From: a plasmid
Strand: one strand, 5' to 3'
Sequence record: CP051992.1
DNA length: 35,665 nt
Part shown: positions 5,964 to 17,875 of the stretch, piece by piece
Position numbering within the stretch: position 1 is the stretch's first letter
Layout: every line of letters begins with the position of its first letter
Program-made: the position numbers and the translations under genes
The notes under the pieces: model-generated
Database searches by the model: none
What the model was told of the DNA's origin: nothing
The model's input: the letters and a program-made list of their open reading frames with translations, nothing else

Positions 5964-6519
5964 ATGGCTAAAATTGGTTATGCACGTGTATCAACGAAAG
6001 ATCAAAGTCTTGACGGCCAAATTGATACACTTAAAGAATTTGGGTGTGAACGTATCTTTAGTGAAAAAATAAGTGGCCGGAAAGTCAAACGTACAGAGCT
6101 TGATAAGTGTTTAGATTATTTACGAGAGGGAGACACATTAGTTATCTATAAGCTTGACCGGTTAGGTAGAACGACAAAGCAATTGATTGAATTATCACAA
6201 TGGCTCGATGATAACGGGATTGATTTACAAATTATTGATATGAACGTTTCAACGAAAGACGCAATGGGTAAAATGTTTTTCACGATGATGAGTGCCTTTG
6301 CTGAACTTGAAGCTAACTTATTAAGTGAGCGTACAAAAAAAAGGGTTAGCTGCTGCGAGGGCAAGAGGTAGATTAGGAGGTAGACCGTCTTTACCAGACC
6401 ATAAGAAACGAGAAATTAAGTTCTTATACGATGAACAAATGATGACTGGAGAAGAGATTGCTAAGAAAACAGGAGTAAGTCGCTCTACTGTTTATCGTAT
6501 AGTTAAGGAAAGAAAGTGA
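5964..6519 (+). pseudogene. serine recombinase (resolvase/invertase family, Bin/Sin-like) split by a +1 frameshift in an A8 tract
   Basis: N-terminal MAKIGYARVSTKDQSLDGQ...LDRLGR is the catalytic resolvase domain. The second ORF (6325..6519) continues ..GLAAARARGRLGGRP.. with a C-terminal HTH (GVSRSTVYRIV). The two frames join if the run at 6335-6342 is A7 rather than A8. Confidence 0.7.
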
Positions 6520-6539
6520 TATAATCACTTTCTTTTTTA
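6508..6539 (+). terminator. intrinsic terminator after the recombinase gene
   Basis: gaaagtgat-ata-atcactttc followed by tttttt. Confidence 0.55.
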
Positions 6540-6548
6540 TTTGTAAAA

Positions 6549-6768
6549 TTTTAGAATTTATTTTTTGTGTTGATACGCTCACACGCACAATCAGAGATTG
6601 TGCTTTTAACAAGCCTACGTGATATTGCAAGGGGCAAAAAACTTTTTATTTGTGGCCATATGGCCAGTCTAAAAACTTTTATTGCTTGTACCCTTGCAAT
6701 CTCCAGCGTAACGGCTTGTTTCAGTGGCTATACAACACGAAAAAAATAAATAATTTCTAAAAGAAAAA
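6549..6768 (+). repeat. 220-bp structured direct repeat, copy 1
   Basis: 97% identical to 7280-7499 (7 mismatches). Contains hairpin gcacaatc-aga-gattgtgc+tttt, nested inverted repeats caagcc..ttgcaaggg / cccttgcaa..ggcttg, and palindrome tggccatatggcca. Ends directly at the SD of the 121-aa ORF. Confidence 0.8.
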
Positions 6769-6781
6769 AGGAGTTAAAAAA

Positions 6782-7147
6782 ATGGATAAAAACAAACTTG
6801 AAATTTATTTGAGAATATGCGAAAACATCAAGGAATATAAAAATTTAGAATTTGAATGTTATAACGAAGATGAAGAAGTTTTTGATTCAAACTTACAATG
6901 TCCTTTGGCATATACTACAAAAGGAGATAATGAGGAATTTGAAATTCAGGTTACATTAGATTTAAATAATAACCAAATTATTAAAGAAATATCGCATGTG
7001 TATATAAATTATAAAGAATATGAGTGTTTTAAAGATTGGGAAGAAATAGCATCTAAAACTTTAAACTTTGACGATTTAATTATGACTGATATGGACGTAG
7101 ATGATTTACTAGAAGAAATTCCTAATAAAAAAGGAATAAAATATTAA
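6782..7147 (+). CDS. strongly acidic hypothetical protein (121 aa)
   Basis: SD aaggag. About 34 D/E against 15 K/R. Flanked by the two 220-bp repeats. Confidence 0.6.
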   Translation: MDKNKLEIYLRICENIKEYKNLEFECYNEDEEVFDSNLQCPLAYTTKGDNEEFEIQVTLDLNNNQIIKEISHVYINYKEYECFKDWEEIASKTLNFDDLIMTDMDVDDLLEEIPNKKGIKY

Positions 7148-7181
7148 ATAAACAATAAGAACAAAGCAAAAATCAAAATGA

Positions 7182-7218
7182 GTGAATGTGATGTATTAGC
7201 TATGCACATCACATTCAC
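7182..7218 (+). other. perfect 13-bp stem hairpin (gtgaatgtgatgt ... acatcacattcac)
   Basis: Read directly; not followed by a T-run. Confidence 0.4.
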
Positions 7219-7242
7219 ATTTAAAAACCAAATTCAAAAATG

Positions 7243-7279
7243 GAGGGAAAGTGAGGTATCACTTTCCCTTTATTTCATT
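7243..7279 (+). terminator. intrinsic terminator (gggaaagtga / tcactttccc + T-rich)
   Basis: 10-bp stem followed by tttatttcatttttt. Confidence 0.5.
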
Positions 7280-7499
7280 TTTTAGAATTTATTTTTTGTG
7301 TTGATACGCTCACACGCACAATCAAAGATTGTGCTTTTAACAAGCCTACGTGATATTGCAAGGGGCAAAAAACTTTTTATTTGTGGCCATACGGCCAGTC
7401 TAAAAACTTTTGTTGCTTGTACCCTTGCAACCTCAAACGTAACGGCTTGTTTCAGTGGCTACACAACACGAAAAAAATAAATAATTTCTAAAAGAAAAA
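7280..7499 (+). repeat. 220-bp structured direct repeat, copy 2
   Basis: See copy 1. Ends at SD caaggagga of the 29-aa peptide ORF. Confidence 0.8.
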
Positions 7500-7515
7500 T
7501 CAAGGAGGATTTAAG

Positions 7516-7605
7516 ATGACTTACTTACTAATACTCATAATAATTATTGGTTTTTGTGTCATGTGTTTTCAAATATTACAGTGTATCAAGTCTTTCAAAA
7601 AATAA
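7516..7605 (+). CDS. 29-aa hydrophobic peptide MTYLLILIIIIGFCVMCFQILQCIKSFKK, type I toxin-like
   Basis: Strong SD (caaggagg) 7 nt upstream. Single TM helix with a basic KK C-terminus. Confidence 0.4.
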   Translation: MTYLLILIIIIGFCVMCFQILQCIKSFKK

Positions 7606-7632
7606 TATAAATTTTGAAAGGGGGTGATATTA

Positions 7633-7752
7633 GTGAAAAGAATGCAGAGAAAGGAAGAAGAACAAAAAAATAAGACTGTAAAAGCTAATTTGGTATTACT
7701 GTACCTTAACATAGCTTATACAATCTTACAGATACTTGGCAAAGTATTATAG
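7633..7752 (+). CDS. 39-aa peptide with charged N-terminus and hydrophobic C-terminus (GTG start)
   Basis: SD aaggggg 5-6 nt upstream of GTG. Terminator hairpin follows immediately. Confidence 0.25.
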   Translation: MKRMQRKEEEQKNKTVKANLVLLYLNIAYTILQILGKVL

Positions 7753-7758
7753 TTCTTC

Positions 7759-7790
7759 AAATAGGGGTTCACGTCCCCTATTTCTTTTCT
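7759..7790 (+). terminator. intrinsic terminator (atagggg-ttcacgt-cccctat + T-rich)
   Basis: Read directly. Confidence 0.5.
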
Positions 7791-7814
7791 ACTATTATAA
7801 CATAGGAGGTTTAA

Positions 7815-7892
7815 AATGGAAAATTACAATAAACTTGTGTTTATTTTATTACTATTCCTTACGTGTTTGAATCTATTAAATTTTATATTGTA
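7815..7892 (+). CDS. 25-aa hydrophobic peptide MENYNKLVFILLLFLTCLNLLNFIL
   Basis: SD taggaggt 8 nt upstream of ATG. Confidence 0.3.
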
Positions 7893-7992
7893 GGTTTTAT
7901 AATGATTAAATGCAAACAGTTTCAAAGATTAAAAGAACATTATTTTAATGGTTTAACTGTTCAATTAATATAATAAAGCGCTCTTCGGTAAA

Positions 7993-8018: not shown

Positions 8019-8624
8019 TTAAATGTTTTTTGTGTACTTACAATTAGGATAGTTAGAACAGCCTAAAAACTGGCCGTTTTTGCCTGTTCTAACTACTAAT
8101 TTATGATTGCATCTTGGACATTTTTCATTATTTGAAAAATCGGGATTTATACTAATAATCCATTTAGATAAGCTTGTTCTATCTTTCATAACGACATCGC
8201 ACGCCTTACCTAACTCGACTGCACTTTTAGTATAAAAACTATTAGTCACAAGCCATGCTTCATCGGCATTGTAAAAACGTTGTGCGGTGTATATTTCTTG
8301 CACAGCTTTAATACCTATCTTACTGTTACTCCGTTTTGCTTGTACAACTATTTTTTTATTCTCTTTTTTTAATATTAAGTCTGCACCATAGTCCCTTGAA
8401 GCTTTCGTTACAATTGGCTTATATTTTAACTTTAAAAACAATGCTTCGAGATAATATTCGAATTCTATGCCTTCCATTTTATCTATATCAATTATATGTG
8501 CTCTTCTATATAATGCTTGAATTTTTTTCTTCTTAATAAATCTATAAATGACGGGCGTTAACTTATATGCGATAACTAACATAAATATTAGTAGTAAAAT
8601 ATTGTAGATGTTTATTTCAGTCAT
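8019..8624 (-). CDS. membrane-anchored Mrr-like (PD-(D/E)xK) restriction-endonuclease-fold protein with C-terminal topoisomerase-type C4 zinc ribbon (201 aa)
   Basis: N-terminal TM (ILLLIFMLVIAY). GADLIL...VVQAKR nuclease-core pattern. C-terminal CPRCNHKLVVRTGKNGQFLGCSNYPNC. Ends 2 bp after the primase-like gene. Confidence 0.6.
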   Translation of the reverse strand: MTEINIYNILLLIFMLVIAYKLTPVIYRFIKKKKIQALYRRAHIIDIDKMEGIEFEYYLEALFLKLKYKPIVTKASRDYGADLILKKENKKIVVQAKRSNSKIGIKAVQEIYTAQRFYNADEAWLVTNSFYTKSAVELGKACDVVMKDRTSLSKWIISINPDFSNNEKCPRCNHKLVVRTGKNGQFLGCSNYPNCKYTKNI

Positions 8625-17626: not shown

Positions 17627-17689
17627 AATTCTGTTAACCTCCTAATCAAAAATACTTAAAATCTTTTAAAAATAAAATTTTCGTAAGAG

Positions 17690-17875
17690 CATAAGGGAAA
17701 TATGACCCCATATTTTATGGGTGGCTGGCAAAGCCAGCCATTTCAAGGTTTTTAAAGAATTTAAAGTGACCCCACAATAAACTATAGTGTCACAGTTTTG
17801 TGACACTATATATTGTGTTTGTCACAGTTTTGTGACACAACATGTAGAATTTGTCTTATTTTTGTGACACTTGTT
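17690..17875. other. candidate origin of transfer (oriT): GC hairpin tggctgg-caaag-ccagcca (17722-17740), 11-bp perfect inverted repeat tatagtgtcac/gtgacactata (17783-17810), second inverted repeat (17819-17838) and a third TGTGACAC copy (17862-17869)
   Basis: Read directly. Lies between the T4SS operon end and the RHH-relaxase operon start. Confidence 0.55.

Follow-up and report, generated by a model that had tools for sequence, protein, structure and literature searches.

What do two nearly identical, highly structured repeats do directly in front of two small genes of a staphylococcal conjugative plasmid? The window, that is, the whole stretch of 35,665 nucleotides (CP051992.1) analyzed here, belongs to a pWBG749-family Staphylococcus aureus conjugative plasmid. 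As an earlier note made from the sequence alone had described, it contains two direct repeats of 220 nt (6549–6768 and 7280–7499) that are 97% identical, differ by seven substitutions and lie 731 nt apart from start to start. Both end at a ribosome-binding site (RBS): copy 1 at GGAG (6770–6773), followed by an ATG at 6782, and copy 2 at AGGAGG, followed by an ATG at 7516. The reading frames that they lead are the ones first reported, a 121-aa acidic ORF after copy 1 and a 29-aa hydrophobic ORF after copy 2. The sub-structures named at that time were all found, namely the side hairpin followed by tttt, the caagcc/ggcttg and ttgcaaggg/cccttgcaa arms, and the palindrome at the apex. The full unit exceeds the 220 nt originally delimited, with a terminator-like hairpin preceding nearly every member of the family described below. 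A search before the remaining plus-strand genes of the window revealed no comparable hairpins. The features of the locus are as follows.

6512–6538, plus strand: terminator-like hairpin of module 1, gaaagtgat-ata-atcactttc followed by a T-run; the motif is conserved in the family.
6549–6768, plus strand: element copy 1, a branched hairpin of about 215 nt, identified by repeat comparison, folds, covariation and the family HMM (E = 2e-60).
6585–6603, plus strand: side hairpin (helix 2) at the three-way junction, gcacaatc-aga-gattgtgc, then tttt.
6653–6666, plus strand: apex palindrome tggccatatggcca (helix 6), adjoined by a conserved GCCAGTC motif; from sequence, alignment and covariation.
6770–7147, plus strand: first led gene, consisting of the RBS (GGAG, 6770–6773) and the 121-aa acidic ORF (6782–7147); from the ORF list and family searches.
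7183–7222, plus strand: inter-cassette hairpin gtgaatgtgatg...catcacattcac; a related hairpin occurs seven times in pNY5A.
7238–7275, plus strand: terminator-like hairpin closing cassette 1, ahead of module 2; from the terminator scan and conservation.
7280–7499, plus strand: element copy 2, identified by repeat comparison and the family HMM.
7505–7783, plus strand: cassette 2, with RBS, 29-aa ORF (7516–7605), 42-aa ORF (7624–7752) and terminator (7759–7783).

The left arm of the hairpin at 6512–6538 overlaps the stop codon of a frameshifted resolvase gene.

The whole repeat forms one long imperfect hairpin with a side branch, and it folds far beyond chance. The predicted energy was −54.7 kcal/mol (z = −9.4) for the minus strand as single-stranded DNA, −51.1 kcal/mol (z = −7.8) for the plus strand as single-stranded DNA, and −79.4 kcal/mol (z = −7.4) for the plus strand as RNA, with 0 of 200 shuffles as good in each case. 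The consensus fold came from folding the copies singly, projecting these folds onto alignment A1 and taking the majority; it replaced the poor consensus that RNAalifold gave on a plain MAFFT alignment including degenerate copies. Across 30 intact copies, the 73 pairs of this fold are 95.5% paired, compared with 40–46% when the partners are slid. Both-sided changes occur at 14 pairs (123 cells), and the observed covariation score was reached by 0 of 500 shuffles. Pairing in helix 2 reaches 99.3%, with covariation between subfamilies at two of its pairs (CA/TG to TC/GA to CC/GG). Compensatory changes over the intact copies thus keep the fold.

The pairing looks like DNA pairing, with 94.5% of cells Watson–Crick and only 1% G:T. 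A:C combinations occur in 37 cells at 11 positions versus 22 cells at 5 positions for G:T, and the A:C cells are wobble pairs in the template strand only, a strand asymmetry that is a weak signal of about 12 events versus about 6. In 31 of 37 copies the more stable fold is that of the template strand (mean difference 3.4 kcal/mol). Five of the seven substitutions between the two window copies fall at unpaired positions; the remaining two turn A:T into A:C on the plus strand, and both are T:G wobble pairs on the minus strand. The earlier note had counted all seven as nonsynonymous in an embedded 60-aa ORF and had concluded that the element is not coding. The count has to be corrected to five nonsynonymous and two synonymous, while the conclusion stands because the ORF is not kept in other subfamilies and conservation follows the base pairs. 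Copies on non-conjugative plasmids with truncated relaxase genes fold at only −17 to −29 kcal/mol as single-stranded DNA, compared with −45 to −57 kcal/mol for intact copies, and are decaying.

The two repeats belong to a family carried by about 82–85 staphylococcal plasmid records with one to seven copies each. Among 72,556 plasmids searched with blastn, matches were confined to staphylococcal sequence, in Staphylococcus records and in one Klebsiella-labelled record that carries staphylococcal plasmid sequence, apart from a weak and partial match (E = 4e-3) to an Arthrobacter plasmid; the enterobacterial plasmids of this set gave none. Neither Bacillus plasmids in distant blastn searches nor a phage collection gave a match, and the plasmid searches returned no similarity in small rolling-circle plasmids. 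A loose pattern scan of genome contigs gave 67 matches, mostly by chance, the real ones being S. aureus and four probable contaminant contigs. The first reading had recognized no RNA family here and, consistently, Rfam had no match at gathering thresholds over the whole window. A permissive Rfam search of 6400–7950 gave chance-level matches only (E ≥ 0.3, far under gathering scores), mostly to the flanking terminators. No published description of the element was found in the literature searched. These hairpin modules of about 215 bases are a previously undescribed and uncatalogued family of structured elements.

About 40 copies each end within about 15 nt of an RBS, and each leads a different gene, with which the element is always co-oriented. 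The led proteins of at least 60 aa are nearly all strongly acidic (pI 4.1–4.8), and some of the led genes are toxin–antitoxin-like. They include a 121-aa, a 190–232-aa and a 65-aa family. The 121-aa protein of the window has a pI of 4.2 and a net charge of −17, and the fold predicted for it bears a weak resemblance to secretion-chaperone or immunity proteins. No significant family emerged for ten led proteins and three small peptides in Pfam, PHROGs, NCBIfam or the PDB sequences, and the small ORFs of cassette 2 had no match in NCBIfam. Acidic led proteins of no known family are typical of leading-region anti-defence genes, and their traits fit the leading-region rules of PMC11541004. Annotation pipelines place spurious ORFs over the element itself.

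How are the led genes transcribed? A conserved terminator hairpin, GGAAAGTGA-nnnn-TCACTTTCC followed by a T-run, lies 8–20 nt 5' of nearly every copy, with AAGTGA..TCACTT plus the T-run as its core motif, and the cassettes end in terminators, so that terminators insulate the modules. A scan of the duplex for sigma-70-type promoters found none inside the elements of the window and of pNY5A, and the overall counts were not above those of shuffles. As there is no sigma-70 consensus in the element and a terminator lies directly upstream, initiation must occur inside the element. Inspection by eye for sigma-B-like, extended −10, outer-stem and side-hairpin-removed promoters showed nothing conserved. 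A plus-strand match of the form TTGRYA-17 nt-AnAGAT was rejected as its −10 falls in the variable loop of the side hairpin. A speculative candidate lies on the opposite strand.

6603–6630, minus strand: speculative candidate promoter, TTGCAA (complement of 6625–6630), a 16-nt spacer and TAAAAG (complement of 6603–6608).

The −35-like TTG(CAA/TAA/TCA/CAT) sits on the non-template arm. The candidate −10 TAAAAG has its T in a pair and the remaining AAAAG open at the junction; this −10 is weak, matching at 4 of 6 positions and missing the conserved T at −7, and so is not canonical. The combination TTGnnn-16 nt-TAAAAG/TAATAG is present in 28 of 30 intact copies with a divergent spacer, as a motif that was chosen after seeing the data.

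[quoted passage not shown]

17685–17695, minus strand: oriT core CTTATGCTCTT, located between smpN and smpO; inverted repeats lie on its 5' side on the minus strand.

From the rule that the inverted repeats lie 5' of nic and from the minimal-oriT mapping of O'Brien 2015, the minus strand is predicted to be the transferred strand, entering in the order 17685, 8019, 7499, 6549. At 16 loci with both an element and an exact oriT core, all 31 elements are opposite to and 3' of the core-bearing strand, and this strand is the template of the element-led genes in 31 of 31 copies; with respect to the oriT core, the polarity of the elements is fixed. The elements begin 0.6–2.9 kb past the core in plasmids of S. 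epidermidis, S. capitis and S. saccharolyticus, where they would therefore enter before any other DNA, and 10–17 kb past it in pWBG749 and pNY5A, outside a strict leading region. These two layouts differ in the orientation of oriT with respect to the MobP2 relaxase gene, and the polarity of the elements tracks oriT, not the relaxase gene. Because oriT and the element may travel as one module, the polarity counts as evidence from no more than about two independent layouts. One three-element cluster in pWBG731 has the opposite polarity, which we explain as an IS257-flanked cointegrated remnant. A kinship of the relaxases with MobL of pLS20, suggested by the PGAP label in S. epidermidis plasmids, was dropped since NCBIfam puts them in MobP2 together with SmpP.

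We propose, with a probability of about 0.5, that the element is a hairpin promoter active on the entering single strand, similar to Frpo/ssi and unrelated to it in sequence. Of the roles suggested in the earlier note, the single-strand promoter of the Frpo/ssi type is the best supported, by the covariation with its nearly exclusive Watson–Crick pairing, the polarity in 31 of 31 copies, the place directly in the leading region in one plasmid group, the lack of a double-strand promoter and the upstream terminator. Among Gram-positive bacteria, the modules are currently the strongest candidates for single-stranded-DNA promoters. Each would consist of a terminator hairpin, the branched hairpin of about 215 nt, an RBS, one or more genes and a terminator, and would control "establishment" genes of staphylococcal conjugative and mobilizable plasmids. 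In the resident double-stranded plasmid, the polymerase would meet no recognizable sigma-A promoter, and upstream transcription would be shielded off; the led genes should therefore be largely silent. During conjugation, the oriT-nicked strand, predicted to be the minus strand in the window, would enter the recipient 5' end first and serve as the template of the led genes. The entering strand would fold into a long, almost perfectly Watson–Crick hairpin with a three-way junction, and the host RNA polymerase might recognize its pseudo-duplex. Its non-template arm offers as candidate signals a helix rich in A/T and similar to an UP element, a TTGnnn within a GC-clamped helix and, 16 nt past it, the TAAAAG that would be pre-melted at the junction. 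The polymerase would exit through the base of the hairpin and then transcribe across the RBS, and the burst of expression would stop once the complementary strand is made. The same RNA could additionally prime the synthesis of the complementary strand, as for Frpo.

F and ColIb-P9 have in their leading regions Frpo and ssi, which are described as promoters on single-stranded DNA (PMC6294495 and PMC11541004, as cited there from Masai and Arai 1997; Bates 1999; Nasim 2004). Our element resembles them in being a long imperfect hairpin on the (here predicted) transferred strand, which is the template of the downstream genes, in having these genes point toward oriT, and in occurring in several copies per plasmid, each before genes of the establishment/anti-defence type. 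In both cases no activity is expected in the double-stranded state; the place of the −10, here a weak candidate, is predicted to be melted in our element as well. However, the element has no sequence similarity to Frpo/ssi and is found in Gram-positive hosts. It is branched, with a three-way junction bearing a side hairpin, and its −10 match is poor. In the pWBG749 family it lies 10–17 kb from nic, past the relaxase-to-primase genes. Its module has a conserved upstream terminator of its own, and its role as a promoter is a prediction.

The closest Gram-positive parallel in layout is EGeRS1, the "establishment gene regulatory sequence type 1" of Bacillus pLS20-family plasmids (Val-Calvo et al. 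2021, PMC8708921). By the definition given there, EGeRS1 is multi-copy, rich in inverted repeats and located directly before the RBS of putative establishment operons, as is our element. Both have a G+C content above that of the plasmid (here 35%, core 42%, versus 30%), no sigma-A promoter consensus, and terminator-like features, which in our case are predicted in silico upstream of and inside the element. The operons of pWBG749 and pNY5A are also convergent with a pLS20-like conjugation operon, whose 3' end they face. The element is shorter, though, at about 215 nt versus 420–750 bp, and a sequence identity above 60%, as defines EGeRS1, is not supported by the distant blastn searches, which matched no Bacillus plasmid. 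The nick of pLS20 has been mapped experimentally, and its establishment genes lie on the non-template side of the nicked strand, whereas here the predicted nicked strand is the template. Modules so alike on the opposite strand side mean that such modules need not be single-strand promoters.

The ssoA/ssoU origins of Gram-positive rolling-circle plasmids and the sso of ICEBs1/Tn916 are folded single-stranded DNA regions of about 150–250 nt that work in one orientation. They are recognized by the host RNA polymerase and are active only while the DNA is single-stranded; ssoA carries a conserved RSB and a CS-6 (TAGCGT/A) loop motif as hallmarks. [quoted passage not shown] It differs in having no RSB or CS-6 motif, in being joined to an RBS and arrayed, and in being carried by large theta-replicating plasmids (annotated "replication initiator protein A"). 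TAGCGT is not conserved across the 30 aligned copies, the nearest sequence being cAGCGTa in the pWBG749 subfamily only.

Could the element act in the plus-sense transcript or on the polymerase in duplex DNA? Similar to EGeRS1, it would then terminate or insulate read-through until some factor or condition releases the gene. We consider this unlikely. The plus-strand RNA is predicted to fold very stably, TTTT follows the side hairpin in most copies, and element and led gene always share one orientation, with the RBS of the gene directly adjoining; moreover, EGeRS1-B of pLS20 stops read-through in its native orientation only and without a double-strand promoter. In RNA, however, the A:C cells are mismatches, and they outnumber the rare G:U (1% of cells). 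The terminator 8–20 nt upstream leaves no space for a promoter that would give a full-length leader, the U-tract has just four residues and is broken in the S. capitis copies, and the RBS is free, not sequestered in the fold. Such a leader finds no match in Rfam and leaves the fixed polarity relative to oriT unexplained. The structured RNA 5' leader of the earlier note is accordingly weakened by the rarity of G:U, the upstream terminator and the Rfam result. A hairpin on the transferred strand might also be just a primer site, used by the host RNA polymerase, DnaG or the plasmid DUF3991-Toprim primase for discontinuous synthesis of the complementary strand, with the adjacent genes being incidental. 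The polarity of the 31 copies fits this equally well, several copies are spaced 0.7–1.3 kb along the entering strand, and every conjugative carrier examined encodes a DUF3991/Toprim protein. Single-strand origins recognized by RNA polymerase are established in Gram-positive rolling-circle plasmids. Frpo itself is described as both promoter and primer site (Masai and Arai 1997, as cited). Yet a pure primer site needs no RBS within about 15 nt in about 40 copies before many genes. Being conserved ORFs that lie between terminators and lack another promoter, the led genes must have their transcription started by something in the element. The CS-6 hallmark of ssoA (TAGCGT in the loop) is not conserved, and the plasmid searches showed no similarity to small rolling-circle plasmids. 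Priming as the sole function is thus quite improbable, and priming as such is compatible with the hairpin promoter.

That the repeats serve cassette exchange or deletion, as sites for the adjacent serine recombinase or as MITE/IS ends or scars, is very unlikely. A resolvase gene does lie directly upstream of copy 1, and the same element stands before different genes in different plasmids in a cassette-like pattern. A natural variant with fewer copies, as the earlier note had suggested looking for, was found in CP049438.1, with just one element, a hybrid, and no 121-aa cassette. RecA-type exchange between 220-bp repeats suffices for this deletion, however, and both copies are kept in pWBG749, where the resolvase is intact, and in the window, where it is frameshifted. 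The res sites of serine resolvases are single, adjacent to the resolvase and built of subsites, whereas the element forms arrays of two to seven copies far from recombinases, most copies having none adjacent. It is one long hairpin under base-pair selection rather than a set of recombinase-binding subsites, and its orientation always matches the downstream gene. No terminal inverted repeats or target duplications bound the element, the phages gave no match, and the plasmid searches returned this element family alone. The serine recombinase sites put forward earlier are thus not supported, with arrays of up to seven copies at many loci without an adjacent recombinase and nothing res-like about them, and a known IS or MITE end has no support from the plasmid and phage searches.

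Plasmids of the pWBG749 family, together with oriT mimics, are thought to mobilize about half of the sequenced S. aureus plasmids (PMC4652767). Should the modules be promoters activated on entry, they would be the first Gram-positive counterpart of Frpo and would allow a comparison with EGeRS1 of Bacillus pLS20. They would also provide a sequence tag that directly lists the establishment genes, with dozens of small acidic proteins as prime anti-restriction/anti-defence candidates. More tentatively, and with somewhat less confidence than in the promoter itself, we suggest that this might be the first Gram-positive family of single-stranded-DNA promoters, of an origin independent of Frpo and with the three-way junction as a pre-melted fork. 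The family might then mark a complete establishment/anti-defence regulon of those staphylococcal plasmids by which most S. aureus resistance plasmids are moved and, beside oriT mimics, allow non-conjugative plasmids also to fire early genes on entry. The hypothesis is open to standard mating, reporter and in vitro transcription experiments. Whatever the mechanism is, the family remains a strongly conserved structured element of staphylococcal plasmids that had hitherto been uncatalogued.

The window is essentially a complete pWBG749-family conjugative plasmid of Staphylococcus aureus, 98% identical to CP127661.1 (35,675 bp) across 25 kb and 97.5% identical to pWBG749. The two direct repeats described in the earlier note lie at 6549-6768 and 7280-7499 (220 nt each, 97% identity, seven substitutions). 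The side hairpin, nested long-range arms and apex palindrome named there were all found, as was a Shine-Dalgarno sequence a few bases beyond the 3' end of both copies. Copy 1 leads an acidic 121-aa ORF (pI 4.2, net charge -17) and copy 2 a hydrophobic 29-aa ORF, as proposed. The embedded 60-aa ORF carries five nonsynonymous and two synonymous substitutions, not the seven nonsynonymous ones claimed.

Features of the two copies and of oriT in the window
6512-6538, terminator-like hairpin upstream of copy 1
6549-6768, copy 1 of the element
6585-6603, side hairpin of copy 1, followed by TTTT
6653-6666, apex palindrome of copy 1
7238-7275, terminator-like hairpin upstream of copy 2
7280-7499, copy 2 of the element
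7516-7605, ORF of 29 aa after copy 2
7624-7752, ORF of 42 aa after copy 2
7816-7893, ORF of 25 aa after copy 2 (these three mostly hydrophobic)
17695-17685, minus strand, oriT core

The entire unit is predicted to fold as a single long imperfect hairpin with a side branch, at -54.7 kcal/mol (z = -9.4) for minus-strand ssDNA, -51.1 kcal/mol (z = -7.8) for plus-strand ssDNA and -79.4 kcal/mol (z = -7.4) for plus-strand RNA. Of the seven positions that differ between the copies, five are unpaired in the fold; the remaining two, T-to-C changes at 6700 and 6731, convert A:T to A:C, equivalent to a T:G wobble on the minus strand.

The start codon follows the element's 3' end by 10-20 nt in every copy, while the downstream genes differ between copies. 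Nearly every copy, in all subfamilies across the fetched loci, is preceded at 8-20 nt by a conserved terminator-like hairpin (GG(A)AAGTGA-nnnn-TCACTTTCC with a T-run), so the repeated module extends past the reported 220 nt. Terminators also close the cassettes. Since terminators flank the unit and an RBS adjoins each copy, the order is terminator, hairpin, RBS, gene(s), terminator, and there is no room upstream for a promoter able to transcribe the whole element as a leader. A consensus scan of the window and the pNY5A array found no sigma-70-type promoter inside the elements. Transcription of the led ORFs must begin somewhere, and the element, as the sole conserved sequence upstream of them, is the only conserved candidate. 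The left arm of the 6512-6538 hairpin contains the recombinase gene stop codon. More repeated hairpins lie between cassettes, at 7183-7222 in the window (gtgaatgtgatg...catcacattcac) and in pNY5A (L075 19294-25067; seven of GTGAATGAGATGAG...CTCATCTCATTCAC and five of TTGACCTCAAATTAAC...GTTGATTTGAGGTC).

The led ORFs encode conserved proteins, with recurring families of 121-126, 190-232 and 65 aa; for the 121-aa family, 23 homologues were found, none outside Staphylococcaceae. Almost all led proteins of at least 60 aa are strongly acidic (pI 4.1-4.8, net charge -8 to -28), and none has a significant relative in Pfam, PHROG, NCBIfam or PDB. The led regions also carry annotated RelE/ParE-type toxin-antitoxin pairs or small hydrophobic peptides. 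This content matches the leading regions described by Samuel et al., in which genes for toxin-antitoxin systems and for small acidic proteins outside known families are read from the transferred strand (PMC11541004). The small ORFs after copy 2 matched no family; together with opposite-strand promoter-like sites (7572->7543 and 7822->7794, TTTCCA-17-TATAAT with TG), they recall type I toxin-antitoxin loci. Automated annotation places spurious ORFs over the element (L075 22902-23198) and extends led genes N-terminally into it (172-198 aa against the 121-aa post-RBS ORF; P0002-P0012).

The element is a family and not a local duplication. Blastn of plasmids returned it in 82-85 records, all staphylococcal or staphylococcal DNA filed under another label, and the phage collection gave no match. 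A profile search of the fetched loci found about 40 copies, in four sequence subfamilies with 70-78% identity to the window copies. Plasmids carry one to seven: S. haemolyticus pNY5A has seven, pWBG731 five and an S. epidermidis conjugative plasmid three. Near-identical staphylococcal plasmid sequence, with elements and oriT core, also occurs under unrelated genera (L023/L052 Actinoplanes; L028 Gemella; L010/L021 Pseudoroseomonas; NZ_CP031260.1 Klebsiella quasipneumoniae), which is probably contamination or mislabelling.

For covariation analysis, 30 intact copies were aligned, with the structure taken as a majority vote of single-sequence folds. Pairing across its 73 pairs is 95.5%, and 40-46% with partners slid by 1-3 columns; 14 pairs are altered on both sides (123 cells), and none of 500 shuffles matched the observed score. 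The fold is under selection, and the check across homologous plasmids proposed in the earlier note thus yielded compensatory changes.

Compensatory changes among the intact copies
Side hairpin: gcaCAatc/gatTGtgc to gcaTCatc/gatGAtgc or gcaCCatc/gatGGtgc
caag arm: caagCc/gGcttg to caagTc/gActtg or caagTt/aActtg
ttgcaagg arm: ttGcaagg/ccttgCaa to ttAcaagg/ccttgTaa or tGAcaagg/ccttgTCa

Degenerate copies occur on non-conjugative plasmids with truncated relaxase genes (L005-L007, L077-L079, L081). Their defects are a 3' truncation, a missing side hairpin or a weak fold, and short ORF remnants (41 aa) follow them. Fold energies are -17 to -29 kcal/mol on plasmids without a functional relaxase against -45 to -57 kcal/mol, as expected if selection acts via conjugative entry.

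The key result of the analysis is the polarity of the elements relative to oriT. O'Brien et al. mapped the pWBG749 oriT between smpN and smpO, with inverted repeats 5' of the core CTTATGCTCTT and dispensable sequences 3' of it (PMC4652767). The core is on the minus strand in the window. Relaxase recognition hairpins generally sit 5' of nic on the nicked strand, and because the inverted repeats are 5' of the core, the minus strand is the predicted transferred strand. The predicted entry order is 17685 -> 8019 -> 7499 -> 6549, and the entering strand would be the template of the plus-strand element-led genes. The gene at 8019-8624 (minus), the last of the conjugation cluster, is convergent with the element cassettes; it is annotated as "restriction endonuclease" in related plasmids, and its C-terminal part matches the corresponding region of topoisomerase I models.

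The exact core and the full set of elements were mapped in each fetched locus. Among these, 16 loci have both, and in each of the 16 the elements, 31 in total, are opposite to the core strand and 3' of the core. Two layouts were found. Along the core strand of pWBG749 and pNY5A come the inverted repeats, core, smpO, relaxase to primase genes (sense) and finally, at 10-17 kb from the core, the elements. In plasmids of S. epidermidis, S. capitis and S. saccharolyticus, the relaxase operon has the core on its template strand (L002 24210-24220; L004 44813-44823) and the elements start 0.6-2.9 kb past the core, in a classical leading region whose genes point toward oriT; several of these plasmids are non-conjugative, with truncated relaxase genes or oriT alone. 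The relaxases of both groups are of the MobP2 family (34% identity), and the core with its inverted repeats is on the sense strand in plasmids of the pWBG749 type (window 17685-17695) and on the template strand in those of S. epidermidis and S. capitis. The two groups therefore have oriT in opposite orientations relative to the relaxase gene, and element polarity follows oriT; the predicted transfer direction relative to the relaxase gene is reversed. The lone exception is in pWBG731, where a further cluster of three elements, in an IS257-bounded segment beside a second, truncated topoisomerase gene, appears to be the remnant of a cointegrate. As oriT and elements may move as one block, the independent polarity evidence amounts to about two layouts.

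An RNA leader or insulator would account for the stable RNA fold and for the side hairpin, which resembles a weak terminator. However, the upstream terminator leaves such a leader no promoter, the RBS is free and not sequestered, and the polarity relative to oriT is unexplained. Structured RNAs usually tolerate many G:U pairs. Here, Watson-Crick pairs make up 94.5% of 2,177 pair cells, and G:T (G:U in plus-sense RNA) accounts for 1% (22 cells, 5 positions), fewer than A:C at 1.7% (37 cells, 11 positions), a mismatch on the plus strand and a G:T wobble on the minus. The pattern is thus DNA-like and leans to the minus strand, which is suggestive only, the independent events being few (about 12 against 6). 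With DNA parameters, the minus strand is the more stable in 31 of 37 unique copies, by a mean of 3.4 kcal/mol. Rfam has no model for the element, in line with the earlier note's failure to recognise an RNA family.

A site for priming only shares the polarity evidence of a single-strand promoter and is compatible with one, Frpo doing both, but it explains neither the RBS abutting every copy nor the expression of promoterless genes. A recombinase site or mobile-element end was suggested by the neighbouring serine recombinase and by a possible deletion of the 121-aa gene. The sister plasmid CP049438.1 does have a single, hybrid element (L086 1501-1719), with copy 1 body alleles and a 3' junction to the 29-aa gene of copy 2, the 121-aa cassette of window 6549-7499 being cleanly deleted; yet homologous recombination between 220-bp repeats would yield this variant. 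Moreover, the element forms one hairpin, and most copies lack a recombinase nearby. The recombinase gene directly upstream of copy 1 is frameshifted (ORFs 5964-6371 and 6325-6519, A-run near 6340); that of pWBG749 is intact (555-nt ORF, L001 8417-8971).

By function, the closest system is Frpo/ssi of F and ColIb-P9. The earlier note's suggestion of a promoter of this type agrees with the hairpin and with the template polarity on the predicted transferred strand. The element has no sequence homology to Frpo/ssi. By layout, the closest is EGeRS1 of Bacillus pLS20, which is multi-copy, rich in inverted repeats, higher in G+C than its plasmid, adjoins the RBS of establishment operons, has no double-strand promoter and blocks read-through (PMC8708921). 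Unlike the staphylococcal element, it is 420-750 bp long, and no Bacillus plasmid came up in plasmid searches with the latter. The EGeRS1 authors decided against a single-strand promoter, since the nick mapped in pLS20 places the establishment genes on the non-template side (PMC8708921); the staphylococcal polarity is opposite and, for the predicted nicked strand, permissive. We found no description of the staphylococcal element in the literature searched.

In the folded transferred strand, the 3' arm would be the physical non-template strand for gene-ward transcription. From the apex it would present an A/T-rich, UP-element-like helix AAATAAAAAGTTTTTT, then CC-TTG(CAA/TAA/TCA/CAT) within a GC-clamped, covarying helix, a covarying stem of exactly 16 nt, and TAAAAG (TAATAG in S. 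capitis), whose T would be paired and the rest unpaired at a three-way junction resembling a fork junction. A junction-proximal start would give an A-rich leader of about 50 nt plus the RBS. The TTGnnn-16 nt-TAAAAG/TAATAG arrangement is present in 28 of 30 copies, with a poor -10 match and no T at -7. The duplex plus strand has the same TTGnnn and no matching -10-like motif, so that the combination occurs only in the hairpin. Picked after viewing the data, this candidate motif is a lead, not a result.

We consider it very likely (probability about 0.85) that the element is a cis-regulatory module for its cassettes. Of the mechanisms, a promoter active on the single strand as it enters has the best support, at roughly even odds. 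The finding is real, non-trivial and reaches well past the window: the element represents a conserved, uncatalogued family of structured cis-elements that marks gene cassettes on staphylococcal plasmids.
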